This document shows positions 5,741 to 59,683 of a stretch of DNA of 64,000 nucleotides, in pieces. Position 1 is the stretch's first letter; every line of letters begins with the position of its first letter. The translations under genes and the position numbers were made by a program. The DNA is from an uncultured Oscillospiraceae bacterium (GTDB lineage Bacteria; Bacillota; Clostridia; Christensenellales; CAG-314), in NCBI GenBank assembly GCA_964533825.1, contig CAZHMU010000005.1, positions 31,599-95,598 on the forward strand, read 5' to 3'. The notes under the pieces are model-generated. The model ran no database searches. It was given only the letters and a program-made list of their open reading frames with translations, and had not been told where the DNA came from.

Positions 5741-6280
5741 ATGCAAATACTTGACTATATCATCATCGCTTGCGCAGTAGTATCATTGGTACTTGGCATT
5801 GTCAAAGGCTTTTTGACACCCGTTGTAAACATTGCCGGCTTTTTTGTAGTGCTGTACGCTGGTGGCGCATTTTCTTCCACACTGTTCCCACTTTTGGCAA
5901 ATATCATCCCAGACGAAGCAACCTGCTCCCTTGCAAGCGCAATCGCATCCATGTTGCTTGTGTGGTTTATTTACTTTTTGATTTCTCGCTTGATTGTAAA
6001 AATCATCCAAAAGAGCAAAGCTTTGGGTGTAGCAAACCGCCTTATCGGTGGTGCGCTTGGCGTTGTGATGGTGTACCTTGTTGTGTCCATCGTGACGGCG
6101 TTCATGCAAAACGAAAACACCTTGTTTGCCTCTGTGCGTGAGCAATATGGCGAAGCTTTCAACCAAAGCTGGGTGGTTCAAAACATCTACAAGACCAACC
6201 CCATTGGCGAAGGCTTGGTAAACAGTGCCTTCCAAAATCTCATTGACCTGTTGCAACAAGCTTTGATCCCACAAGCGTAA
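5741..6280 (+). CDS. CvpA-family membrane protein
   Basis: About 4 TM helices. The N-terminus MQILDYIIIACAVVSLVLGIVKGFL is typical of the colicin V production (CvpA) family. RBS AGGAGA is present. Confidence 0.75.
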   Translation: MQILDYIIIACAVVSLVLGIVKGFLTPVVNIAGFFVVLYAGGAFSSTLFPLLANIIPDEATCSLASAIASMLLVWFIYFLISRLIVKIIQKSKALGVANRLIGGALGVVMVYLVVSIVTAFMQNENTLFASVREQYGEAFNQSWVVQNIYKTNPIGEGLVNSAFQNLIDLLQQALIPQA

Positions 6281-7954: not shown

Positions 7955-8737
7955 TTATTTATCGAGATACTGCCCAATTTTGGGGAACATTTGCAAGGTG
8001 TTCTTGCGCACTTGTTCTTCCACTTGTTGTGGCGTTTTACCAAGTATAAGTGCAATTTTGTCCACAATCAAGGGGATGTTGAAGGGTGTGTTGGTTGTTC
8101 CGCGCAAAGGTACAGGCGCCATGTAGGGCGCATCCGTTTCCGTCAAAATGCGGTCAAATGGGATGGATTGGATGACATCTTCCTTTTTGGCATTTTTGAA
8201 GGTAATCGCCCCACCAAAAGCAAAGTAATGCCCAAGTTTTACGCATTGCTTTGCAAACTCCGCCGAGCCACTGTAACAGTGCCACAACACGTTGTTGTTG
8301 AGATACTTCTTTTGCGCAGTAAGCACATCCATCGCATCGCCGTAGGCATCGCGGATATGCAAGGTCAATGGCAAACCAAGTTTGTCGGCAATCTCAATTT
8401 GCTCGGCAAAAACATCGCGTTGGATGTTGCGTTCACTCAGATCGTAGTAGTAGTCCAACCCAATTTCTCCAACGGCAACAACCTTTGGATGAGTGGCGCA
8501 CTCGCACATCAGTTTGACAAAGTTTTTGTCAAATTCCTTTGCTGTGTGCGGATGCATACCCACCGTTGCAAACACCTTTTGGTACTTGTTTGCCAACTCA
8601 AAGCTTGCAATCATGCCAGCGAGATCTGAGCTGTTGTTGATGACAAAGTCGATGTTGTGATTGTCCAATTGGGCAACAATTTGCTCCACTTGTCCCACAA
8701 AACGCTCATCATCAAGGTGCAAATGACTGTCAATCAT
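7955..8737 (-). CDS. tatD: TatD-family metal-dependent hydrolase/DNase
   Basis: MIDSHLHLDD N-terminus with conserved His/Asp/Glu positions (GEIGLDY, HIRDA, ETDAPY). The position downstream of metG is the usual Firmicute arrangement. Confidence 0.9.
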   Translation of the reverse strand: MIDSHLHLDDERFVGQVEQIVAQLDNHNIDFVINNSSDLAGMIASFELANKYQKVFATVGMHPHTAKEFDKNFVKLMCECATHPKVVAVGEIGLDYYYDLSERNIQRDVFAEQIEIADKLGLPLTLHIRDAYGDAMDVLTAQKKYLNNNVLWHCYSGSAEFAKQCVKLGHYFAFGGAITFKNAKKEDVIQSIPFDRILTETDAPYMAPVPLRGTTNTPFNIPLIVDKIALILGKTPQQVEEQVRKNTLQMFPKIGQYLDK

Positions 8738-10686
8738 TATCTTACTTCCTTACCGCTGTCAATGTCCTTTTCAGGTGTTACAAAAATAACCGATTTGTCG
8801 TCAGCAGCGCACAAAATCATACCGTTGCTTTCCACTCCGCGGATTTTTGCAGGTTTCAAGTTCTTGACAAGCACAACAGTCTTGCCCACCATGTACTCAG
8901 GAGTGTAGTGTTGCGCAATTCCGCTAACAACTTGACGCACTTCGTCGCCAACTTGCAGTTGGAAGCAAAGTAGTTTGTCGCTCTTTGCAACCTTTTCGCA
9001 ACTAAGCACCTTTGCGGTGCAAAGTTTTACCTTTGCAAACTCGGTAATGTCAATCAATTCTTCTTGTGGTTTTTCGCTTTGTGGTTCTTGCTTTTTGTTT
9101 TGAGCTTGCGCTTCAGCAACTTGTTTTGCGTGCAATTCTTCCAAAACTTTCAGTTCCTTTGCGATGTCAATGCGGTCAAACAAGTTTGCGCCCTTGGTTA
9201 CAGGTGTACCTTCGGCAATGCCACCAAATGTTTGGATTCCGTCAAAGTTTGTTGGAACTTCCACACCAATTTTACCAAAGATTGTCTTTGCAGTCTTGGG
9301 GATGAAAGGCAGCAACATGGTCGCAGCAAAACGGATGCATTCGCACAAAACGTACATTACTGTTGCCAAACGCTCTTTGTCACCGTTTTTGTTGAGAGCC
9401 CAAGGCATTGTTTCGTCAATGTACTTGTTGGCACGTTGAACAATCTTGAAGATGTTTGCCAAAGCATCTGGTGCGGAAAGGTTTTCGATGTCGGCACGAA
9501 CTTTTGCAAGAGTGCCTTCGCAAAGAGCAATAATTTCCTTGTCCAGCTCGGTGTAAGCGTTTGGTGCTGGGATTGTGCCACCAAAGTATTGTGTTACCAT
9601 TGCGGTGGTACGACTTACCAAGTTACCAAGGTCGTTTACAAGGTCGGTGTTGGTGCGAGTGAGTAACGCCTCGTTTGTGTAGTTGCCATCACTTCCAAAT
9701 GGGATTTCGCGAAGAAGGAAGTATCTGATAGCATCCACTCCGTAACGCTCCGCAAGGAAAAATGGATCAACAATGTTGCCTTTGGATTTACTCATCTTGT
9801 CGTTGTCAAAGAGCAACCAGCCGTGTCCGTAAACCTTCTTTGGCAGTGGCAAATCAAGCGCCATCAAAAGTGCCGGCCAAATGATGGTGTGGAAACGTAC
9901 AATTTCCTTGCCCACCATGTGAAGGTCAGCTGGCCAAAACTTGTCAAAGTTGGCGTGGTCTTCTTGAAGGTAGCCCAAAGCTGTGATGTAGTTTGTAAGC
10001 GCATCCACCCAAACGTATGCAACGTGTTTTGGATCAAATGGCAACTTTACACCCCAGTCAAATGTGGTACGAGATACGCACAAGTCTTTGAGACCGGGCT
10101 TGATAAAGTTGTTTATCATCTCGTTCATACGCGCCTTTGGACTGATAAAGTCGGGGTTTTCTTCGTAGAACTTGATGAGTTTGTCTTGATACTTGGAAAG
10201 ACGGAAAAAGTAGCTTTCTTCCTTGGCAAGCTTAACTTCTCTACCGCAGTCAGGGCATTTGCCGTCTACAAGTTGGCTTTCGGTAAAGAAAGATTCGCAA
10301 GGTGTGCAGTACCAACCTTCGTAGCTGGATTTGTAAATGTCGCCATTTGCAAGCAATTTTTCGTACACTTTTTGTACGGTTGCTTCGTGGTAGTCGTCAG
10401 TAGTGCGGATGAATTTGTCGTAGCTGATATCCAACAACTTCCAAAGCTCAATGATTTGGTCGTACAAGTCGTCAACAAACTTTTTGGGTGTTACGCCCTT
10501 TGCCTCTGCCTTTTGTTGTACCTTTTGGCCGTGTTCGTCGGTGCCGGTAAGGTAAAACACGTCAAAGCCATCCATACGCTTGAAACGCGCAATAGCATCG
10601 CAAATGATGGTTGTGTAGCAGTGACCAATGTGGAACTTGCCGCTTGAGTAGTAGATTGGAGTTGTGATGTAGTATGGTTTTTTCAT
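8737..10686 (-). CDS. metG: methionine--tRNA ligase with C-terminal tRNA-binding domain
   Basis: FHIGHCYT (HIGH), KMSKSKGN (KMSKS), a CPxC...CPDC zinc knuckle, and a Trbp111/EMAP-like C-terminus. Confidence 0.95.
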   Translation of the reverse strand: MKKPYYITTPIYYSSGKFHIGHCYTTIICDAIARFKRMDGFDVFYLTGTDEHGQKVQQKAEAKGVTPKKFVDDLYDQIIELWKLLDISYDKFIRTTDDYHEATVQKVYEKLLANGDIYKSSYEGWYCTPCESFFTESQLVDGKCPDCGREVKLAKEESYFFRLSKYQDKLIKFYEENPDFISPKARMNEMINNFIKPGLKDLCVSRTTFDWGVKLPFDPKHVAYVWVDALTNYITALGYLQEDHANFDKFWPADLHMVGKEIVRFHTIIWPALLMALDLPLPKKVYGHGWLLFDNDKMSKSKGNIVDPFFLAERYGVDAIRYFLLREIPFGSDGNYTNEALLTRTNTDLVNDLGNLVSRTTAMVTQYFGGTIPAPNAYTELDKEIIALCEGTLAKVRADIENLSAPDALANIFKIVQRANKYIDETMPWALNKNGDKERLATVMYVLCECIRFAATMLLPFIPKTAKTIFGKIGVEVPTNFDGIQTFGGIAEGTPVTKGANLFDRIDIAKELKVLEELHAKQVAEAQAQNKKQEPQSEKPQEELIDITEFAKVKLCTAKVLSCEKVAKSDKLLCFQLQVGDEVRQVVSGIAQHYTPEYMVGKTVVLVKNLKPAKIRGVESNGMILCAADDKSVIFVTPEKDIDSGKEVR

Positions 10687-10777
10687 ATTTTTCCTCTATT
10701 TTTCCAAAAGAACGAATGAGCTCTTTTGTTAATTTGACTTTTTGCAAACTTTAGTTGATTGTAATACTGTTAGATTC

Positions 10778-10803
10778 CGTAGGGGAGGGTTGCCCCTCCC
10801 GCA
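10778..10803 (+). repeat. GTAGGGG-hairpin repeat (H family) copy
   Basis: cGTAGGGGAGGGttgcCCCTCCCGCA; it shares its ends with 8 other copies in the window. Confidence 0.75.
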
Positions 10804-14537: not shown

Positions 14538-14621
14538 TTATATACAAGAAAGCTCGATATATCAACAATCTTATTATTGATGTTGTTTGTATAAGCGATA
14601 GTGCGTATTTGGTAGATAAGA

Positions 14622-14667
14622 GACTCTCACTTTGGGAGAGCTGGCACGATAGTGCCTGAGAGGAGTG
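14622..14667 (+). repeat. nested-hairpin repeat (S family) copy
   Basis: CTCTCACTTTGGGAGAGCT-[GGCAC gata GTGCC]-TGAGAGG; same frame as the copy at 24630 but with a different inner stem. Confidence 0.7.
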
Positions 14668-15362: not shown

Positions 15363-15375
15363 GCAAACATTAAAA

Positions 15376-22937: not shown

Positions 22938-22971
22938 AAGTAACTTCTCCTTTTGAGATTTTTCTGTGTAA

Positions 22972-23256
22972 GGCTCTATCACAAACTCTGGTTGCCCTTT
23001 GACGGCAAAACGACTGTGCAATCTCCCACATTGCTCGGTCACAGACTTTGCAAGTATGCTCCGCGTCGCAACTAACGCTACATTGTTCGCAATGATGCAA
23101 AAAAAGCATCATTGCTCACTTTTAGCGTTGTTGCTCCTTTCCCCACAAACCAAGATTTGATTTTGTGGGGACCCCATTAGTTGCAATGTAGTTCTTGCTT
23201 GCGATTTATCCACCAAACCGCCTAACGGCCAATCAACCATTTTCTGCGACATATCC
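22972..23256 (+). mobile_element. ISL3-like MITE, long form (L1)
   Basis: The 5' end GGCTCTATCACAAACTCTGGTTGC and the 3' end ...CAATCAACCATTTTCTGCGACATATCC form imperfect terminal inverted repeats. It aligns end to end with the copy at 59293. Internal hairpins include GCAATGATGC/GCATCATTGC and CCCCACAAA/TTTGTGGGG. Confidence 0.75.
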
Positions 23257-23269
23257 TTTTGTTAAACAC

Positions 23270-23298
23270 ATTATACTTGCAATTTATTGCGCTGTCAA
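23270..23298 (-). promoter_or_regulatory. sigma-A promoter driving the protease gene through the MITE
   Basis: Minus strand TTGACA, 17 nt, TATAAT. It lies just outside the MITE, about 330 nt upstream of ATG 22937. Confidence 0.6.
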
Positions 23299-23574: not shown

Positions 23575-23591
23575 ACTTTCACAACACAATA

Positions 23592-23780
23592 GTTTGCAGG
23601 TTGCGTGAAACAATCGCATTTGTGGGGGAACAATGTGCAAATCATTGACAGTCCCGCTACGGTAAGGCCTTGCCAAGTCCGAATGCCCAACTGCAACAAT
23701 TTTTAAGGATGGTCTTCGATGCAAAGATACAACTCACTTTTGCCACGCAAAAATGGTTGTATTTGCGGTGGCATTTTTTC
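23592..23780 (+). promoter_or_regulatory. cobalamin (B12) riboswitch with terminator expression platform
   Basis: The core GGGGAAcaaTGTGcAAATCattgACAGTCCCGCTACGGTAAgg matches the conserved GGGAA..GGTG.AAATCC...CAG.CCCGC.AC.GTAA segment. A B12-box-like AGTCCGAATGCCC and a closing GTTGC/GCAAC helix follow, then the terminator GCCACGCAAA/TTTGCGGTGGC plus T6. Confidence 0.65.
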
Positions 23781-23785
23781 GTTTA

Positions 23786-23947
23786 GGCTCACTCACAAGA
23801 GCTGGTTTGCTTTTTGACGGCAAAAGTTCTGCGTAGATAGCGACGTTTTGTTCAGTCGCAGATGTTCCACGTATGCTCCTTCACATCAACGACGCTCCTA
23901 CTTGCCTTTTCTTTGTCACATCGCCTAACGGCTAACCAACTATCCCA
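23786..23947 (+). mobile_element. ISL3-like MITE, diverged/truncated copy (L2a)
   Basis: GGCTCACTCACAAGAGCTGGTTTGCTTTTTGACGGCAAAAG ... CGCCTAACGGCTAACCAACTATCCC carries the same 5' and 3' modules as the other copies. Confidence 0.6.
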
Positions 23948-23948
23948 T

Positions 23949-24020
23949 GCTCTTCGCAAGGTCTTGGTTGCTTTTTGATAGCAAAATGACTCACGCAACC
24001 AAACCATCCCACAATGATTG
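23949..24020 (+). mobile_element. ISL3-like MITE fragment, 5' module only (L2b)
   Basis: GCTCTTCGCAAGGTCTTGGTTGCTTTTTGATAGCAAAATGACTC abuts L2a. Confidence 0.5.
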
Positions 24021-24069
24021 TGCCACCATTGTTGTTGTAAAAAATACATCACGAAAAGGAGAAAAAACA

Positions 24070-24573
24070 ATGAAACACACAAAAAGATTGCTAACGTGGA
24101 TTTTGGCAGTAGTGCTTGTTGTTGGCGCATTGTGTTTGGTTGCTTGTGTGGAAAAACCCACACCACAGCAACTCACGGAACTAACTGTGCCCAATCTCAA
24201 GGATGGTCAAGTGGCTGTCATCATCAAAAATGGCGACAAAGACTTTACCAGCTACGTCGTATCACTCACTGACGAAATGACAAAGGTTGCAGACGTACTG
24301 CAATATCTCAAGGATAACGGTATGTCCCTCGACTGGACAGACTCCGACTACGGCAAAATGATCAACGCCATTGGTCAAATCACTCCAGACCCATCCAAAA
24401 ACGAGTTTGTAGCATTTTTCACAAGCGTACAAGCAGACAAAGGCAACTGGGCTGGCGTGCCTACCTACACACTAGGGGACACAGAACTGCAAATTGTATC
24501 CGCACAAGTGGGTGTAAGTGATGCCACAGTGGAAAGCGGTGCAGTTTTCTACTTTGAAATTTCCACCTATTAA
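24070..24573 (+). CDS. DUF4430 (transcobalamin-like fold) lipoprotein
   Basis: The true start is Met42 of the track ORF (GGAGAAAAAACA ATG). Lipobox LCLVAC. The DUF4430-like body reads ...SDYGKMINAIGQI...W.....G.....GVSDATVESGAVFYFE. It lies downstream of the B12 riboswitch. Confidence 0.7.
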   Translation: MKHTKRLLTWILAVVLVVGALCLVACVEKPTPQQLTELTVPNLKDGQVAVIIKNGDKDFTSYVVSLTDEMTKVADVLQYLKDNGMSLDWTDSDYGKMINAIGQITPDPSKNEFVAFFTSVQADKGNWAGVPTYTLGDTELQIVSAQVGVSDATVESGAVFYFEISTY

Positions 24574-24590
24574 TATTGCAAAGTCTTCTC

Positions 24591-24618
24591 GTAGGGGGGC
24601 GAGCCGTGCTCGTCCGCA
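24591..24618 (+). repeat. H-family hairpin copy
   Basis: GTAGGGGGGCGAGCcgtGCTCGTCCGCA. Confidence 0.7.
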
Positions 24619-24629
24619 CCTTGTAAAAA

Positions 24630-24672
24630 GGCTCTCACTTTGGGAGAGCTCCCACGTAGTGGGTGAGAGGGG
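24630..24672 (+). repeat. S-family nested hairpin copy
   Basis: GGCTCTCACTTTGGGAGAGCT-[CCCAC gta GTGGG]-TGAGAGGGG. Confidence 0.7.
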
Positions 24673-24715
24673 TTAGAGACAGTCACATTGGACGCCAACA
24701 AATTTTCAAAACTTT

Positions 24716-24739
24716 AGGGGAGGCGTTTCGCCTCCCGCA
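24716..24739 (+). repeat. H-family hairpin copy
   Basis: TAGGGGAGGCGtttCGCCTCCCGCA. Confidence 0.7.
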
Positions 24740-24756
24740 CATACTCTACAATCTCT

Positions 24757-24782
24757 CGCGGGAGAGGTAAACCCTCCCCCAC
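24757..24782 (-). repeat. H-family hairpin copy, inverted orientation
   Basis: The reverse complement reads GTGGGGGAGGGtttaCCTCTCCCGCG. Confidence 0.65.
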
Positions 24783-24945
24783 AAACACTATCATACTACT
24801 GTAAGGGTAGACGCAACTATACTTCCAATCACAAACAAATTTTACAAAATAACCAACCAGCTATGAAACGCACAAAGTGCTCTATACCAACCGTGCACTG
24901 CACTTGGCGGTAATAAAATTTTTGAAGTATTCAAATTAATCAATT

Positions 24946-25755: not shown

Positions 25756-26220
25756 ATGAAAAAAGTTCTTGTACTTGCACTCGTAGCTGTTATGGTATTT
25801 GCAGTATGCTCTTTGACAGCTTGCGGTGTAAACACTTACACAGGCGAATGCTCTTACGAATCTTGGGGCACAACATATGGTTGCAAAGTTGACGTTACAG
25901 TTAACGGCAAAGGCGTTATCACATCCGTAAAACTTTGGTCTGACGAAGATACTGGTTGGGTTAGAACAACTTCCGCTGACCGTTGGGATGGTACATCTCT
26001 CGGTATCGGTTACGAAGCTGCAGAAGCTGCTTACGCAGATTACCTCAAGCTCTTCAAAGGTAAGACTGTAGAAGAAGTTATGGCTATCGACGTTGAAGTT
26101 AACGCTCTCATCCAAGTGGTTGAAGACGATTGGTCCATTGCTGGTGCAACAGTATCCGCTGCACGTATCGTTGCTGCTGTTCAAGATGCTCTTAGCCAAA
26201 TCCCAGCTGACGCTGAATAA
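25756..26220 (+). CDS. FMN-binding-domain lipoprotein (flavinylation substrate), paralog 1
   Basis: Lipobox SLTAC. The C-terminal IAGATVSAARIVAAV is the S/TGAT flavinylation-site context of FMN_bind domains. Confidence 0.75.
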   Translation: MKKVLVLALVAVMVFAVCSLTACGVNTYTGECSYESWGTTYGCKVDVTVNGKGVITSVKLWSDEDTGWVRTTSADRWDGTSLGIGYEAAEAAYADYLKLFKGKTVEEVMAIDVEVNALIQVVEDDWSIAGATVSAARIVAAVQDALSQIPADAE

Positions 26221-26498: not shown

Positions 26499-26551
26499 GC
26501 TAATTGTATGAAAGTCTTTTCATAACAATATTATTCAAGGAGAACACTAAA

Positions 26552-27001
26552 ATGAAAAAGATTCTTGTTATTGCTCTTACAGTAATCATGGTTGTTTCCG
26601 CTTTCGCTCTTACAGCTTGCGCACAACCACAAACAGTTACAGGCGAATGCTCTTACGAATCCTATGGCACAAAATATGGTTGCAAAGTTGACGTTACAGT
26701 TCAAAACGGCATCATCACAGCAGTTAAACTCTACACAGACGAAGAAACTGGTTGGGTTAGAACAACCGCTCCATACGGTAACTGGTCTCAAGAACAATTT
26801 GACGCTGCTGAAGGCGCTTACGCTGAATACCTTGATAAATTTGTTGGTATGACAGTTGAACAAGCAAACGCTATCGTTGCTACAGCTACAGCTGAGGGTC
26901 AATCAGTCGAAACTGAAGGTTGGGCTATTGCTGGCGCAACAGTATCTTCCGCTCGTATCATCGTTGCTATTCAAAACGCTCTTAGCAAACTTGCTGCTTA
27001 A
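26552..27001 (+). CDS. FMN-binding-domain lipoprotein, paralog 2
   Basis: The true start is Met17 of the track ORF (AAGGAG RBS). Lipobox ALTAC. IAGATVSSARIIVAI is present, and there are long nucleotide-identical runs with paralog 1. Confidence 0.75.
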   Translation: MKKILVIALTVIMVVSAFALTACAQPQTVTGECSYESYGTKYGCKVDVTVQNGIITAVKLYTDEETGWVRTTAPYGNWSQEQFDAAEGAYAEYLDKFVGMTVEQANAIVATATAEGQSVETEGWAIAGATVSSARIIVAIQNALSKLAA

Positions 27002-27211: not shown

Positions 27212-29224
27212 ATGAAAAAACTCTTTTTGACAATGTTGATACTTTCAATTTTGTTTGTCACGCTTGTGCCCAGTTGCGCAAGCGCACTTTCCGTTACAGA
27301 AAGCGAAAAGAGCTACCAACCCCACGAAAACGACTACACTTTGTACTCCATTGCCGACAAAGATGGCAACCCTGTGGGGGTTAGTTTTTCCAAAAGCTAT
27401 TTTGGTTCAAGCGGAATTTCCCTGTCCATCCAAATGTACTCCGACCCAAACGGCCTTGACTTGAACTTTTGGATTGGTTCACAAACGCTCACATCCACTC
27501 AACTTGCAACCCGCAACCGGGTAGTGGAGTTGTTCGATACCATCGATGCCACAACCAACCTGGTGGACTCCGTTGCCAACACCCAGTACGATGGACAAAA
27601 TGGCAAACCCACGTCCGACGTGTACCGCTACAACCAAGCAAAACAAGGCGACACATTGCAAATTGACTACCACACCTACATGATGCTTTCGCTTGGTCGC
27701 GAGATGTACGATTTGACCAACCACGCCTTCAATCCGGCAATCTACCGACTGGTGGACTTGTGGGGATTTTCCAGCCGAATCTACTCCAACGTCAACTTTG
27801 GTTTGCCTTACGACCGCCAAGTGACCCGTGCCGAGTGGTCAGCCAACGGCTATCCATTGCCTGACCAAAAGTATGTCACAGCATTTAGTAACCCCAACTT
27901 TACCGATTTTTCTCAAAACGCAGTAGTATTGACGGAGCAAAACGGCAACTACTACGTTACAAAAAACGTTGCGCCCGCCGTTGTTGATGGCGTGGAGTAC
28001 GACCAATGGATTGACCTTGGTGGTATTGCCAAAGGGTATGTCGTAGACCTTGTCAAGCAACAGATAACCGCTCTTGGACAAACTCGCTATTTGGTGGATG
28101 CTGGCACAAGTAGTCAAAGCTACGGCTATAACTATGGCGGCAACAATGTGGAAATGCGCATTGTCAACCCATTTGACGAGTACGCAAGCTTTTTCCCAAC
28201 ACCTTTGGTTGGATTTGAGCTTGCCAACAGAGCAATTTCCACAAGCGGTCAGTACGTGCGCAAATACACAACCAATGGTATCGAGTACGCCCACATCATT
28301 GACGGCACAAAGGGAGCGCCAGCACAAACAGGCATCAAGTCCATCACACTGACCATTCCTGATGACGATGGCAGTGGCTACTGGGCTTGCAAAGCTGATT
28401 GTCTCTCCACCGCAATGACAGTTTTGGGTCGTGACGGCATCGTCAACTTCTGCAACAGCGCATTTTTTGCCGAAAACAATGTGGACATTTTGGTTTTGCA
28501 CGAAACAATCGATGGGCGCAAACAAGTGCTGTCCAACATGGACCAAAGCCAGATGACCTACCAAGCGGAAGCTTTGCAAGAGTTTTCGTGGAACTTGAAA
28601 AAGGTAAATGATGTTTGGACGTATGATGGCAACGCCGAGCTAATTGAACTACCCAAAACAGACTACACTTGGCTGCTTGTTGTTTTGGCGGTGGTAGTGG
28701 TGGCATTGTTTGCAGTGGTTGTAGTTGCAAGATACACAGTCCACAAGCAAAAGAGTCAACAAAACATCCACAACGCAAAAAAGGACAAGTTTTTCAAGCC
28801 GGCGGACGTGATGGTGTACCTTGCGGTTGTGTTGGTGATTGTGGTGCTGTTTTCCGTATTTTTTGGCGAAAGTAGCAACGCTTACCAAAACATCCAAACG
28901 GTGTCCGTCGTGGATATGCATACAAACCAAGTGTTGTTTGTGTACGACACACTCCGCAATGAGTACCAAATTGCCGAAAACTCCCCTTGGGCAATCACTG
29001 TGACACCAAAAGCCGATGGCATTGTTGTCCGCCTGGAAGGGGAAATTGACGGCGAACAACACTTCAACGAAGTTACCATCACAGTTGGCTCACAGCCCAC
29101 AGCAAAAATGACAGACTCCATCTGCGGTTTCCACCAAGATTGTGTGCGCAACTTTGGCACAATGACCACCGCAGGACAATCCATCGTGTGCAGTCCAAAC
29201 TACTTAAAGGTGGTTACCGAGTAA
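27212..29224 (+). CDS. apbE: FAD:protein FMN transferase (ApbE) fused through two TM helices to a NusG_II (DUF1312) domain
   Basis: A signal peptide is followed by an ApbE body with DLGGIAKGYVVD. TM helices are LLVVLAVVVVALFAVVVVA and VMVYLAVVLVIVVLFSVFF. The C-terminal NusG_II-like part reads ...CGFHQDCV...GQSIVCSPNYLKVV. Confidence 0.8.
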   Translation: MKKLFLTMLILSILFVTLVPSCASALSVTESEKSYQPHENDYTLYSIADKDGNPVGVSFSKSYFGSSGISLSIQMYSDPNGLDLNFWIGSQTLTSTQLATRNRVVELFDTIDATTNLVDSVANTQYDGQNGKPTSDVYRYNQAKQGDTLQIDYHTYMMLSLGREMYDLTNHAFNPAIYRLVDLWGFSSRIYSNVNFGLPYDRQVTRAEWSANGYPLPDQKYVTAFSNPNFTDFSQNAVVLTEQNGNYYVTKNVAPAVVDGVEYDQWIDLGGIAKGYVVDLVKQQITALGQTRYLVDAGTSSQSYGYNYGGNNVEMRIVNPFDEYASFFPTPLVGFELANRAISTSGQYVRKYTTNGIEYAHIIDGTKGAPAQTGIKSITLTIPDDDGSGYWACKADCLSTAMTVLGRDGIVNFCNSAFFAENNVDILVLHETIDGRKQVLSNMDQSQMTYQAEALQEFSWNLKKVNDVWTYDGNAELIELPKTDYTWLLVVLAVVVVALFAVVVVARYTVHKQKSQQNIHNAKKDKFFKPADVMVYLAVVLVIVVLFSVFFGESSNAYQNIQTVSVVDMHTNQVLFVYDTLRNEYQIAENSPWAITVTPKADGIVVRLEGEIDGEQHFNEVTITVGSQPTAKMTDSICGFHQDCVRNFGTMTTAGQSIVCSPNYLKVVTE

Positions 29225-29240
29225 CGAATATATGCAATTT

Positions 29241-29266
29241 CGTAGGGGAGGGGTTTCCTCTCCTGA
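29241..29266 (+). repeat. H-family hairpin copy
   Basis: cGTAGGGGAGGGGtttCCTCTCCTGA. Confidence 0.65.
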
Positions 29267-29294
29267 TGTAGTCAAATTGTAAATATTGGTTAAT

Positions 29295-29320
29295 TACAGG
29301 GGCGAATTGTGGTCACCCAT
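29295..29320 (+). repeat. H-family hairpin copy (degenerate)
   Basis: TACAGGGGCGAattgtGGTCACCCAT. Confidence 0.5.
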
Positions 29321-29446
29321 ACAATCACCAACTCAACTACATCAAAGTTGTTACTGGCTAATATCTGCCCATTTTAGCATAATATTTTTGTTGGTTACAA
29401 TCCCGTAGGGACCACCTGCATACCTTTGCAATTTGGAGCCAATGAA

Positions 29447-29490
29447 GGCCCCCCGCTGGGGGAGCTCCTGCGTGAGCAGGTGAGAGGGCC
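29447..29490 (+). repeat. S-family nested hairpin copy (variant first arm)
   Basis: GGCCCCCCGCTGGGGGAGCT-[CCTGC gtga GCAGG]-TGAGAGGGCC. Confidence 0.65.
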
Positions 29491-29502
29491 TTTTGAAAAT
29501 TT

Positions 29503-29550
29503 ACCCTCTCCGTCAGTCTAACAACTGCCACCTCTCCCAGAGTGAGAGGC
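29503..29550 (-). repeat. T-variant nested hairpin copy
   Basis: The reverse complement GCCTCTCACTCTGGGAGAGGTGGCAGTTGTTAGACTGACGGAGAGGGT is about 90 percent identical by eye to 59539..59586. Confidence 0.75.
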
Positions 29551-29720
29551 ATAAAGCAAATACGGCCATTTGTTGTAATGCATTATGGTATGTAAAAAAA
29601 ATTGTATGCGACCAACAAATATTGATGGATACAAAATCACAATCCGTTACACGTAACAACAAACTATCACTCACAAAATTCATGCACATCAAACACTCTC
29701 ACTCCAAAGGAACAAATCCT

Positions 29721-30428
29721 ATGCCAACACTCAACACAAAAACTAAATATTTCAATGCCAAACGCATTGCAACGTTGTCGGTGTTGTGCGCAATGGGACT
29801 AATTATGTTCATGGTGGAAAGCCTGTTTCCCCCATTGTTTTTGCCCGGTGCAAAAATGGGTCTTTCCAACATCTTTTCTATGCTGACGCTGTTTTTGCTT
29901 GGCCCAGTGGATGCTCTTGTAGTTGTGGTTGTACGCACAGTGCTTGGTAGTTTGTTTGGTGGTGGCGTTTCCACACTTATGTACAGCTTGACGGCAGGCA
30001 TTGTTTCGGTGGTAGTTTCCGCATTTTTGGTAGAGTTTGTCTATCCAAATGCCAGTATCATTGCCATTTCCATTGTGTCGGCAATTTGCCACAACATCAC
30101 GCAAAACGTGGTATTTTGTTTGGTATCTAACACTCCAGAAATGTTTAGCTATATGCCTTGGCTGGCACTTGTTGGCATCTTGGCAGGACTGATTGTTGGC
30201 TTTGCCGTGAACTTGATTTTGCGCGCGTTGCCAAATGGATTGATGCTTTCCCTCTTGCCACGTATTGAGCAAACAGACCCATCAACAGTGCAAACCGCAT
30301 CAAAAAACAAGCCCAAAGTTGTAGTTATTGTTGCGCAAGACGACCCACAGACAAATGCCTCAATGCAAACCATCGACCAATCACAACCAACGGAACAAGC
30401 GACGACAGTTAACAAAATAGAACAGTAA
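29721..30428 (+). CDS. Gx transporter family membrane protein (Hpre_diP_synt_I domain)
   Basis: The true start is Met77 of the track ORF (AAAGGA RBS); the upstream part is repeat-derived. Conserved FMVESLFPP...PGAKMGLSNIF is present with ~5 TM helices and a hydrophilic C-tail. Confidence 0.7.
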   Translation: MPTLNTKTKYFNAKRIATLSVLCAMGLIMFMVESLFPPLFLPGAKMGLSNIFSMLTLFLLGPVDALVVVVVRTVLGSLFGGGVSTLMYSLTAGIVSVVVSAFLVEFVYPNASIIAISIVSAICHNITQNVVFCLVSNTPEMFSYMPWLALVGILAGLIVGFAVNLILRALPNGLMLSLLPRIEQTDPSTVQTASKNKPKVVVIVAQDDPQTNASMQTIDQSQPTEQATTVNKIEQ

Positions 30429-30471
30429 AACTGCTGGCACAAATTTCCTTGATGGCATATTTTTACCAAAA

Positions 30472-30498
30472 TGTAGGGGCGACCTGTGGTCGTCCGCA
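30472..30498 (+). repeat. H-family hairpin copy
   Basis: tGTAGGGGCGACCtgtGGTCGTCCGCA; 25 of 26 nt identical to the copy at 58632. Confidence 0.75.
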
Positions 30499-30604
30499 AA
30501 AATATGTACGAGCATAAACTTAATACAATAACAAATTATTGTTTATTTTCCAAGATTAATTATCATTTGTAAAATCAATTACTAATTGCAACAACGGGTA
30601 ATAT

Positions 30605-31420: not shown

Positions 31421-31435
31421 CAAAAAACACAACAA

Positions 31436-31466
31436 AAGGACAGCGCAATTTTGTCGTTGTCCTTGT
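31436..31466 (+). terminator. terminator after pdxK
   Basis: AAGGACAGCG / CGTTGTCCTT stem. Confidence 0.5.
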
Positions 31467-31515
31467 TATTTCAAATTATTGTCCTTTTTTTATTTCAAAT
31501 TATTGTCAAAAGAGA

Positions 31516-31550
31516 AAAGACTTTGGTTTTTCCCAAAGTCTTTTTGTTTT
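31516..31550. terminator. second hairpin between convergent pdxK and ligase genes
   Basis: AGACTTTGG / CCAAAGTCT plus T-run. Confidence 0.55.
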
Positions 31551-31645
31551 ACCTAAATTCGATTTTTTGCTAATTGTGTGAGCTGTTGTAAACTTGCATC
31601 AGCACAAGACTACAAGTTAGATCTGACAGTAATCAAACAAACTCA

Positions 31646-52769: not shown

Positions 52770-53258
52770 ATGATTTATCGCAAAACAAAGGCGGAAGATT
52801 TTCCCGCCGTCATACAACTCAAAAACCAAGTCAAGCAACGCGTCATTGCGCAAAACCTTGCAATTTGGCAGGATGGCTATCCACAAGACCAACTCATTGC
52901 CGACGACATTGCCCACGGCTTTGGCCGAGTTGTGCAAATTGATGATCAAATTGTCGCCTATGCAACATTTCATTCCGCCGACTACGAGTATCCCAAGGAT
53001 ACCTTTCGCAAAAACAACGTGATGTCCTTTGGCAGAGTTATGGTTGCAGATGGCTTTGTTGGCAAAGGTATTGCAAGTTTTTTGGTACAAAGTATGATTG
53101 ACGAAGCGCGCAACCTTGGCTACGATGGCGTTGGCATTTTGGTGGACGATTTCAACGAGCGTGCCACTCGCCTTTACTACCGCAAAGGTTTTGTCAAGGA
53201 AGGTCACGCCACTTTTCCTTGGGCCGATTTGGATATATTGGCATTGTATTTTAACTAA
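52770..53258 (+). CDS. GNAT-family N-acetyltransferase
   Basis: MIYRKTKAEDFPAV... with the acetyl-CoA loop RVMVADGFVGKGIASFL and ...YRKGF. Confidence 0.8.
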   Translation: MIYRKTKAEDFPAVIQLKNQVKQRVIAQNLAIWQDGYPQDQLIADDIAHGFGRVVQIDDQIVAYATFHSADYEYPKDTFRKNNVMSFGRVMVADGFVGKGIASFLVQSMIDEARNLGYDGVGILVDDFNERATRLYYRKGFVKEGHATFPWADLDILALYFN

Positions 53259-53430
53259 GGCTCTGTCAAAAACTCTGGTTGCTTTTTTACGGCAAAACGG
53301 CTACGTAATTTCCCAGATTTTACTCGGTCACTGCCCCTACGTAACCTCACTTGCAACAATGTGGTTATTGCCCGCTTTTTATCCGTCAAACCGCCTAATG
53401 GTTAATCAACCATTTCTTTGTGGAATATCC
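53259..53430 (+). mobile_element. ISL3-like MITE with perfect 8-bp target-site duplication (L3)
   Basis: TTAACTAA (53251-53258) and TTAACTAA (53431-53438) flank the element exactly. Its ends are GGCTCTGTCAAAAACTCTGGTTGC and ...TTAATCAACCATTTCTTTGTGGAATATCC. Confidence 0.85.
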
Positions 53431-53542
53431 TTAACTAATTGCAATATTTTGGTATTTACAAATATTAGTTTGCAAAGTATAATAGTAAAAAGTAGCATAC
53501 CCTAAAAGTAAAACTGCACCTTGTGGTGCAAAAGGAGTCATT

Positions 53543-57580: not shown

Positions 57581-57635
57581 ACTTTAGTCCCCTTTCAATT
57601 TATGTAAAAATGGCAGTATTCGTCACTATTTTTTT

Positions 57636-57712
57636 GGCTTTGTCACAAACTCTGGTTACTTTTTGACGGCAAAACGCCTAATGGCTAATCAACTATTTCT
57701 TGTAACAGAACC
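57636..57712 (+). mobile_element. ISL3-like MITE, minimal 77-bp form (L5)
   Basis: GGCTTTGTCACAAACTCTGGTTACTTTTTGACGGCAAAACG is joined directly to CCTAATGGCTAATCAACTATTTCTTGTAACAGAACC. Flanks are ATTTTTTT / AATTTTTT (7 of 8 match). Confidence 0.75.
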
Positions 57713-57808
57713 AATTTTTTGGGGAACTCCATCGAAGAATTCTTAGGCTATATTGTAGATTTTGCTGTCGCGGCATCTTGTGCGCTCAAAGCTATTTGTT
57801 GCCTATTG

Positions 57809-58557: not shown

Positions 58558-58631
58558 GGCTCGCTCACAACATCTTGTTTTCTTGAAGGAGCTTCGACTT
58601 CCTTTTTGGGGAGGCAAAATACTATACAATC

Positions 58632-58658
58632 CGTAGGTGCGACCTGTGGTCGTCCGCA
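58632..58658 (+). repeat. H-family hairpin copy
   Basis: cGTAGGTGCGACCtgtGGTCGTCCGCA. Confidence 0.75.
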
Positions 58659-58679
58659 TATAGCCCACTAATTAAATTT

Positions 58680-58703
58680 TGGGAGGGTGGTATTCTCCCC
58701 TAC
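58680..58703 (-). repeat. H-family hairpin copy, inverted
   Basis: The reverse complement reads GTAGGGGAGAataCCACCCTCCCA. Confidence 0.6.
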
Positions 58704-58737
58704 AGTTGGATAACAATTACCACAACTAATTTGCAAC

Positions 58738-58770
58738 AAAAAAGCACTTCAAATCGAAGTGCTTTTCCTT
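58738..58770. terminator. terminator after marR (minus strand)
   Basis: AAAGCACTTC / GAAGTGCTTT with T6 on the minus strand. Confidence 0.7.
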
Positions 58771-59254: not shown

Positions 59255-59283
59255 ATTATACAACTTTGCACTCGCAATGTCAA
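59255..59283 (-). promoter_or_regulatory. marR promoter
   Basis: Minus strand TTGACA, 17 nt, TATAAT. Confidence 0.65.
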
Positions 59284-59292
59284 TAGGCAAAA

Positions 59293-59616
59293 TGCTCTGT
59301 CGCAAACTCTGGTTGCTTTTTGACAGCAAAACGACTGCGCAATCATCTGTGTTTTGTTCTGTCACAGACCCTACAGGTATGATCCGCGTCGCAACTAACG
59401 CAATATTGTTCGCAATGATATAGTAACATCATTGCTTGCTTTTAGCGTTGTTGCTCGTCCTACAAATCAGGGGTTTGATTTGCGGGGGTCCATCAGTTAC
59501 AATGTGGTTCTTGCTTGCGTTTTACTCGTCAAACCACAGCCTCTCACGCTGGGAGAGGTGGCAGTCGCAAGACTGACGGAGAGGGCGGCCAATCAACCAT
59601 TTCTTGTGACAAAGTC
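59293..59616 (+). mobile_element. ISL3-like MITE, long form carrying a nested T-variant hairpin (L4)
   Basis: Collinear with L1 (22972..23256), including the GCAACTAACGC...GCGTTGTTGC long hairpin. The ~48-nt insert at 59539-59586 replaces GCCTAAC of the 3' module. Confidence 0.75.
59539..59586 (+). repeat. T-variant nested hairpin inside MITE L4
   Basis: GCCTCTCACGCTGGGAGAGGTGGCAGTCGCAAGACTGACGGAGAGGGC; inverse orientation relative to the copy at 29503. Confidence 0.75.
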
Positions 59617-59683
59617 TAACAAAAACTGAATATTCACTTTTGCGAACAAACTTAAAAGCAGTTTCCTTGCTATAAAATAGTCA

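Follow-up and report, generated by a model that had tools for sequence, protein, structure and literature searches.

The 64-kb window analysed here (64,000 nucleotides of contig CAZHMU010000005.1, from an uncultured Oscillospiraceae bacterium; 43.5% G+C) carries, in the spacers between its genes, a family of short, dispersed hairpins. Three of them are found in the spacer 24574-24945, which is flanked by two plus-strand open reading frames (ORFs), at 24589-24618, 24712-24739 and, on the minus strand, 24757-24784; others lie downstream of an ApbE-fusion gene (27212-29224) and of a ThiF gene, or next to metG. The sequence-only reading of this DNA had proposed nine such copies, which it regarded as similar to repetitive extragenic palindromes (REPs) and left without a family name. 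On the evidence given below, we are fairly confident that they are REPs of the GTAG-tagged superfamily, residing in an uncultured gut Clostridia bacterium.

The repeats are more frequent than base composition predicts: the strict pattern GTAGGGG-N12-24-CCGCA matches the window three times, as compared with 0.02 matches expected from dinucleotide shuffles. A covariance model (CM), designated R1 and built from 62 distinct copies (alignment A3) originating only from unrelated IMG/VR contigs, was run unfiltered on the window, where it yielded six strong matches (E values 1.4e-8 to 2e-4), all on the plus strand, and two weak matches to decayed copies on the minus strand. Eight of the nine proposed copies are thereby recovered, six of them firmly, in both orientations and all of them between ORFs, as had been described (this number, eight in 64 kb, is that of the window only). 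The ninth, proposed at 29295 and spanning 29293..29322 (+) (ACAGGGGCGAATTGTGGTCACCCATAC), has no CM match up to an E value of 10 and does not fold (-1 kcal/mol, z +0.87); it was rejected as a family member, or else has decayed past recognition.

The best copy, 30471..30498 (+; GTAG-GGGCGACC-tgt-GGTCGTCC-GCA; CM 35.7 bits, E 1.4e-8), occupies a convergent spacer, 43 nucleotides (nt) past the stop codon of ORF 29493-30428. Copy 58631..58658 (+; GTAGGtG...; 27.6 bits, E 4e-6) lies 74 nt past the stop of the ThiF gene, and the identity of 25 nt out of 26 that had been noticed between these two copies (from 30473 and 58633) is correct (repeat family D11, 96%). Copy 10777..10803 (+; ccGTAG-GGGAGGG-ttgc-CCCTCCC-GCA; 28.6 bits, E 2e-6; DNA fold -7.9 kcal/mol), one of the strict-pattern matches, is located in the divergent spacer between metG (minus strand, start at 10686) and the next plus-strand gene. 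Two further copies are both located 16 nt past a stop codon. The first, 24589..24618 (+; tcGTAG-gg-GGGCGAGC-cgt-GCTCGTCC-GCA; 22.2 bits, E 2e-4; -8.1 kcal/mol), follows ORF 23947-24573, has one G.T pair and two additional G separating its tag from its stem, and adjoins a second repeat element (24618-24676). The other, 29240..29267 (+; tcGTAG-GGGAGGGG-ttt-CCTCTCCT-gat; 26.3 bits, E 1e-5; -5.5 kcal/mol), follows the ApbE-fusion gene, contains two G.T pairs and no longer has its tail.

Two inverted pairs occur in the window, both with the tags outside. In the first, the left member 24712..24739 (+; mutated tag, TTAG-GGGAGGCG-ttt-CGCCTCCC-GCA; 29.6 bits, E 1e-6; -9.9 kcal/mol, z -5.1) is separated by 17 nt from the decayed right member 24757..24784 (-; GTGG-GGGAGGG-tttac-CTCTCCC-GCG; 13.1 bits, E 0.11). 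In the second, the 58631 copy is the left member and the decayed copy 58678..58705 (-; GTAG-GGGAG-...-CTCCC, five pairs left; 13.5 bits, E 0.09; -3.5 kcal/mol, z -0.5), at a distance of 19 nt, the right one; a genuine terminator follows at 58740-58766. Only the first pair folds into a single long REPIN-like hairpin (dimer 24710-24786; -16.1 kcal/mol, z -4.5), and the four strong copies outside the pairs are singletons.

The unit, of about 26 nt, comprises GTAG, which is unpaired and stands at the foot, a G+C-rich stem (7-8 base pairs, the first three being G-C), a loop of 3-4 nt and a G(CA) tail, the intact copies having DNA folds of -5.5 to -9.9 kcal/mol. The GTAG tag is present in five of the six strong copies and replaced by TTAG in the sixth, and the two weak copies have GTGG and GTAG. 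That all copies share the same ends was thus too strong a statement: copy 24712 starts with TTAG, copy 24784 starts with GTGG, copy 29240 ends with CCTGAT and copy 58705 lacks the GCA. The CCGCA end of the window copies is a local flavour, GTAG alone being conserved across the wider family. A degenerate-pattern scan of IMG/VR returned 109 stretches, and the conservation of the tag is best seen in 530 hairpins with a GGG[CA]G stem that stand outside the selection exerted by the scan pattern: their commonest 5' flank is by far GTAG (158), and their commonest 3' flank is CTA(C), i.e., the tag on the opposite strand (227). The tag stands on one side only, the far side consisting of G plus variable bases. 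What defines the family is therefore a GTAG, unpaired and on one side of a hairpin with a GGG(C/A)G foot. Such tagged hairpins, 447 in 1.06 Mb, are plentiful in gut contigs and in phage-like contigs with 36-70% G+C. As an aside, they are extremely dense in some viral-labelled IMG/VR contigs (L013, L027, L065, L093 and L107, with more than 20 in 7.7 kb of L027), where double-foot copies with GTAG on both strands also occur; these contigs may represent REP clusters from bacteria rather than phage DNA.

The closest genomes to the window are metagenome-assembled genomes (MAGs) from uncultured gut Clostridia. The gene order is syntenic in L001 (a goat-colon MAG), L002 (Candidatus Fimimonas sp.) and L003 (a roe-deer caecum MAG), the ApbE-fusion proteins of which are, respectively, 77%, 72% and 65% identical in amino acids (aa) to that of the window. 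The host of the repeats is an uncultured gut Clostridia bacterium, a relative of Candidatus Fimimonas. A link with the small dispersed repeats of cyanobacteria (Elhai 2008), or with the HIP1 context of hosts among the Nostocaceae, was rejected, the HIP1 octamer GCGATCGC having no occurrence in the 64-kb window and the host belonging to the Clostridia. Exact-protein look-ups of the ORFs beside the 24589 cluster and the 10777 copy gave no match, and a literature search with sequence strings gave unrelated eukaryotic matches only. When model R1 is applied to these relatives, L001 has four copies and L003 two, and the 22 kb of L002 yield no match.

The compensatory changes that had been read in the stems are real. 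In an alignment of 14 copies (window, L001 and L003), 94.5% of the cells are paired, five of the eight pairs show two-sided change (23 double changes), a G-U pair occupies stem position 3 in four copies, and the covariation score is reached by none of 500 shuffles; the slid-register controls are 47-65% paired. Since these copies were fitted to the model, and since alignment A3 (which gives similar figures) was selected for pairing, cleaner evidence comes from 154 matches to a loose pattern that fixes the outer pairs only. These matches originate from 113 sources of 43-70% G+C, and in 132 of them the stem has at least 7 base pairs. The pair positions partly or wholly free of the pattern are nearly all Watson-Crick: pair 4 is C-G 95 times, A-T 12 times and never mismatched; pair 6 is G-C 66 times, A-T 40 times and G-T once; and pairs 7 and 8 use all four orientations.

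These features place the family in the superfamily of GTAG-tagged REPs, which includes the SMAG repeats of Stenotrophomonas maltophilia. As defined by Di Nocera, De Gregorio and Rocco (2013, BMC Genomics 14:522, PMC3733652), such REPs have an unpaired terminal GTAG, which is sometimes degenerate, stems mostly of 6-9 base pairs with frequent G-T pairs, loops of 2-4 nt, and subfamilies distinguished by complementary stem residues; they occur as single units and dimers, near the 3' ends of upstream ORFs, and flank the genes of REP-associated tyrosine transposases (RAYTs), with which they form REPtrons. All the features testable in the window are found in its copies, both inverted pairs being of the tags-outside type that is the commonest among dimers, so that the REP-like interpretation of the sequence-only reading stands and the family it could not assign has a place. 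Two differences are worth noting. First, the present host is an uncultured gut Clostridia bacterium, whereas the catalogue of 24 GTAG families in eight phyla makes no mention of Firmicutes or Clostridia in its text (PMC3733652). Second, the foot GGG(C/A)G...C(G/T)CCC spans very different G+C contents here, while most of the published families are bound to a species or genus. The Stenotrophomonas REP used as an in vitro substrate (PMC8266576) is built like the present copies, from GTAG, a perfect 8-bp stem and a 3-nt loop. The REP/BIME elements of E. coli and their TnpA-REP enzyme (Ton-Hoang 2012; Messing 2012, PDB 4ER8) likewise combine a GTAG tag beside a hairpin with an HUH-Y1 enzyme, but are longer, imperfect palindromes with a bulge required by the enzyme, whereas the window REPs have the short perfect stems of the Stenotrophomonas-type group. 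Similarly to the REPINs of Pseudomonas fluorescens (Bertels & Rainey 2011), the inverted doublet 24712/24784 forms one long hairpin; the window copies differ from them in being mostly singletons or tandem, and in both doublets the second partner is decayed.

The same preference for spacers is observed elsewhere. Among 153 distinct copies in other loci (up to 58% G+C), 63% fall outside crude ORF calls that cover 85% of the DNA, so that ORFs are depleted of the repeats. Within the group of relatives, the comparison of orthologous spacers reveals copy turnover, not conservation. Upstream of ApbE, there is no copy in the window or L002, one REP in L001 and REPs in L003. For the other spacers, the comparison covers the window, L001 and L002, the last of which has no copy in any of them: downstream of ApbE, a REP in the window and none in L001; after the gene 23947-24573, three copies in the window and none in L001; in the spacer 30429-30574, a REP in both the window and L001; and upstream of the hexapeptide transferase, none in the window and two in L001. 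At the level of strains, nine same-species Logan contigs, 99-100% identical to the window, all possess the 30471 copy, in which two different single-nucleotide polymorphisms (SNPs) each break one base pair. As these contigs end inside the second repeat element (at 29460 and ~59558), the 30471 REP is the only one they cover. A 52-nt length difference in contig L226 was considered as a REP and rejected, being a replaced spacer outside the window. The same contigs are also polymorphic for a 22-nt tandem duplication (GGACAATAATTTGAAATAA..) in the spacer 31421-31645, contig L128 (3623-3825) having one unit fewer.

It could be argued that the hairpins serve the host at the RNA level, as terminators or as stabilisers of 3' ends, that they are of local origin and kept by selection on RNA structure, and that they are not mobile DNA repeats. 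Five of the six strong window copies are in sense orientation, 16-74 nt beyond a stop codon, and no canonical terminator stands on the strand of the genes whose ends are at 24573, 29224 and 30428. Furthermore, the G.T pairs of three of the six strong copies (24589, 29240 and 30471) become A.C mismatches on the opposite strand, and thus favour the hairpin on the GTAG strand. Yet we regard this explanation as improbable for the following reasons. First, no T tract follows any copy (the tails being GCAcc, GCAca, GCAaa and GCAta) and none was reported by the terminator scan or scored as terminator-like, so that a reading as intrinsic (Rho-independent) terminators was rejected; the genuine terminators of the window, for example at 15374, 19945, 31515, 41692 and 58740, are different, namely A-tract/stem/T-tract hairpins. 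Second, RNA stability does not explain the conservation of the unpaired GTAG over contigs of 36-70% G+C. Third, the orientation relative to the upstream gene shows no significant bias in other loci (34 sense, 24 antisense). Fourth, copies are gained and lost at orthologous spacers, and SNPs break pairs. Fifth, copies of both orientations are found in frame within RAYT genes (see below). The Rfam search on the window detected a cobalamin riboswitch only; the hairpins gave no match, even at E<=1. In practice, the copies are to be taken as ordinary REPs rather than as a new regulatory RNA. A secondary RNA role after insertion is plausible and compatible with the REP explanation: by analogy, the inserted copies probably also act as 3' hairpins on transcripts (the five sense copies), and such a role is plausible for the two copies located 16 nt past the stops at 24573 and 29224. 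The riboswitch (RF00174, 40.2 bits), for its part, occupies 23581-23708(+) and precedes ORF 23947-24573 (208 aa, without a Pfam domain), the gene directly followed at its 3' side by the REP cluster.

The second repeat element mentioned above belongs to a family of about 57 nt, made of two adjacent hairpins followed by (T/G)GAGAGGG (e.g., GGCTCTC-actttg-GGAGAGC-T-CCCAC-gta-GTGGG-TGAGAGGGG), the 5' arm of which is able to pair with either of two GAGAG tracts. Its copies lie at 24618-24676(+), 29435-29492(+), 29500-29562(-), 59527-59589(+) and ~14611-14666(+) in the window, at 6142-6203 and 12938-12996 in L001 and at ~12020-12075 in L002, and have no Rfam match. The junction by which the element adjoins the GTAG REP is common to the window and L001, and it is also within this element that the same-species assemblies break. 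The GTAG hairpin might accordingly be a module of a larger composite MITE (miniature inverted-repeat transposable element) that includes this neighbour and is moved by another transposase, an explanation we consider very improbable. In its favour, the junction reads CCGCA followed by CCTTGTAAAA(A)GGCTC at both 24589-24676 of the window and 12912-12996 of L001, alike tails (GCAaaggctcccc..., GCAatgccttcccc...) stand behind copies in IMG/VR contigs such as L012, and the two families have spacers in common. Most copies, however, stand alone with unrelated flanks (10777, 24712, 30471, 58631 and most of the 447 external ones), as does the second element at ~14611-14666 and 59527-59589. According to Di Nocera et al. 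(PMC3733652), REPs are in some cases found in regular association with other repeats, so that the adjacency may reflect a shared preference for spacers.

Two other kinds of repetition are present in the window. A conserved third module of about 85 nt (...CGTTTTGCCGTCAAAAAGCAACCAGAGTTTGTGACAGAGCC...), extending over ~300 nt in three of its five copies, is apparently positioned upstream of minus-strand ORFs; it is found on the minus strand at 22940-23270, 23780-23900, 53230-53440, 57600-57760 and 59260-59640, and has no Rfam match. In addition, the tandem paralogues 25756-26220(+) and 26504-27001(+), upstream of the ApbE-fusion gene, share DNA blocks that are 72-94% identical and encode proteins with an FMN_bind domain and lipoprotein-like N-termini.

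Regarding the enzyme that would recognize the hairpins, it is established for TnpA-REP in E. coli, Stenotrophomonas and Marinomonas that the enzyme binds the REP as a folded single strand, that cleavage depends on the GTAG tag and on an unbroken stem, and that the cut, made at a dinucleotide close by, can be followed by the rejoining of strands (PMC3333891, PMC8266576). The sequence-only reading had advised looking for a RAYT gene elsewhere in the genome; none is present in the window, but a RAYT family carrying such hairpins does exist in gut Clostridia. When E. coli RayT served as the query of a phmmer search over all the loci collected, it matched a 163-aa Y1 ORF in locus L014 (10247-10738(-)), which displays an HUH motif (HIHLLL) and a tyrosine motif (YIDGNP). 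Two inverted GTAG hairpins lie inside this ORF, in frame: GTAGGGGCGATCATTGATCGCCC encodes VGAIIDRP, and its reverse complement, ~170 nt downstream, encodes GRSMIAPT. This small Y1 family has 2481 homologues, mostly on contigs of ~1 kb, to which JGI gives the name RayT and NCBI the name transposase [Oscillospiraceae]. The best NCBIfam model of these proteins is REP_Tyr_transpos (E 1e-18 to 1e-21), and their sole PDB match is 4ER8, the E. coli TnpA-REP (E 2e-6).

A metagenome scan with the alignment of this family gave 80 loci, with 36-56% identity; the small RAYT loci (~165 aa) with in-frame REPs are L014, L130-L136, L140-L219, L220 and L221. A tagged hairpin occurs at one or both of two fixed in-gene sites (sense, +105 to +147; antisense, +252 to +318) in 45 of 75 distinct proteins, and at both sites in 34, the reading frame being open in 73 of the 75. 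The in-gene stems vary among loci with compensatory changes, and the peptides follow as VGAxxxRP and GRxxxAPT. The density of hairpins is 2.15 per kb within the RAYT gene, 0.79 in the flanks of +-400 nt and 0.25 in the remaining parts of the loci. The stem of the in-gene REP is shared with flanking REPs in 13 of 33 cases, and among the 21 distinct combinations of in-gene stems, 9 have one and the same stem at both sites, versus 1.05 expected; such sharing of stems between both in-gene sites and the flanks suggests that they may be replaced in concert. Two low-G+C loci, L220 (GCA_017631085.1, G+C 0.42; gene 10001-10498) and L221 (G+C 0.45; gene 8570-9091), carry both in and next to their RAYT gene the hairpin GTAG-GGGCGACC-att-GGTCGTCC-GCA, which has the same arms, G.T pair and tail as the 30471 copy of the window, and differs by its loop alone.

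The cognate enzyme is likely a small RAYT of the subclass-2.4 type, widespread in gut Clostridia. Published as hallmarks of this TnpA-REP subclass are REPs lying in frame inside the gene, together with a REP foot of three G-C pairs (Quentin et al. 2018, BMC Genomics 19:475, PMC6006769). Its REPtrons, which correspond to RAYT group 4 (Bertels et al. 2017), resemble the present ones by GT[AG]G, by the three G-C foot pairs and by double-foot variants with GTAG on both strands (here, e.g., in L013 and L136). They differ in that subclass 2.4 was described as being abundant in Cyanobacteria and Bacteroidetes, with a scattered occurrence in other groups, the Clostridial proteins being likened to it by their features, outside that tree. 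Another difference is that the in-gene sites of the Clostridial genes are fixed, inverted and often of the same stem, one of them being upstream of the HUH motif; such an arrangement of the two sites may be unpublished so far.

A larger Y1 family of about 250 aa, considered as a candidate, is real and very common in gut Clostridia. That it mobilises or binds the window hairpins, or that these are relics with no living enzyme in the lineage, strikes us as extremely unlikely. This larger family (TIRYT, or subclass 2.1) has 5499 homologues and is indeed present in Clostridia (PMC5581495), and E. coli strains are known that retained their REPs after the loss of tnpA-REP. The ~250-aa Y1 genes of Oscillospiraceae are nevertheless flanked not by GTAG hairpins but by different ones, which are inverted, vary in their stems and share the loop GGGGACGGTTC (L113, 9900-10860; L117, 9920-10830 and 17210-18240), and which fit the published terminal-inverted-repeat motif GGGGWSAS of TIRYT/subclass 2.1. 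For this reason, the family was rejected as the cognate enzyme.

We propose that the GTAG strand of the REPs would fold as single-stranded DNA, that a RAYT (TnpA-REP, HUH-Y1) would recognise the tag and the hairpin foot, and that it would cleave and rejoin nearby, so that copies would spread and be reshuffled. If only the tag and foot are read, the upper stem is free to drift as long as it remains paired, which leads to conserved ends and a compensatory core. In gut Clostridia, a small RAYT reading the tag and GGG foot on the GTAG strand would explain the conserved parts, the paired drift of the upper stem, the tolerance of G.T on one strand and the gathering of copies in post-gene spacers. 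Because the window has no RAYT gene, the mobilisation of its copies in their own genome is what we infer, that is to say, that a RAYT exists, or once existed, in that genome and moved them.

Several observations weigh against this proposal. First, no RAYT/Y1 gene was found in the window or in L001-L003 by Pfam on 30 ORFs or by a motif scan with HMM/phmmer searches in six frames. Second, the small Y1 proteins score under the curated cut-off of NCBIfam (65-75 bits versus 80). Third, L220 is distant from the window, with 45% aa identity on one shared protein, on account of which it was rejected as a close relative. Fourth, the conserved CT cleavage dinucleotide is not evident next to the copies, where position -2 is a pyrimidine and position -1 mostly C, the latter being biased by the scan pattern. 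Fifth, with respect to recent mobility, no empty site or presence-absence polymorphism was observed, the single REP site covered by the same-species contigs being fixed. Sixth, as only two of the six strong copies belong to inverted doublets, the REPIN replication model does not clearly apply.

A broader view is that the hairpins form part of a single, unusually wide-ranging REP/RAYT system, in which the RAYT gene is itself inside the repeat economy and the fusion of hairpin and second element is an undescribed composite; we hold this as a tentative idea and an improbable one. If it were true, the same GTAG-GGG(C/A)G foot would operate across gut Clostridia and phage-like contigs of 36-70% G+C, and the in-gene stems, by changing in concert with each other and with the flanks, would point to an enzyme rewriting its own REPs through gene conversion or replacement. 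Alternatively, the segment flanked by the in-gene REPs would be a REPIN-like unit or a self-regulatory switch.

To our knowledge, REPs and domesticated transposases have been studied almost wholly in Proteobacteria and Cyanobacteria. Our findings add a new host group to this known class of selfish or domesticated repeats, the GTAG-hairpin system being common in gut Clostridia. In practical terms, the REPs are one source of the assembly breaks in gut metagenomes and can serve as simple strain-typing markers, and, judging from the in-gene copies, many of the odd or spurious short peptide motifs in annotations of gut Clostridia (VGAxxxRP, GRxxxAPT) are probably translated hairpins. Finally, the compact RAYT/REP pairs of this new host group (165 aa plus 23 nt) lend themselves to biochemical work.

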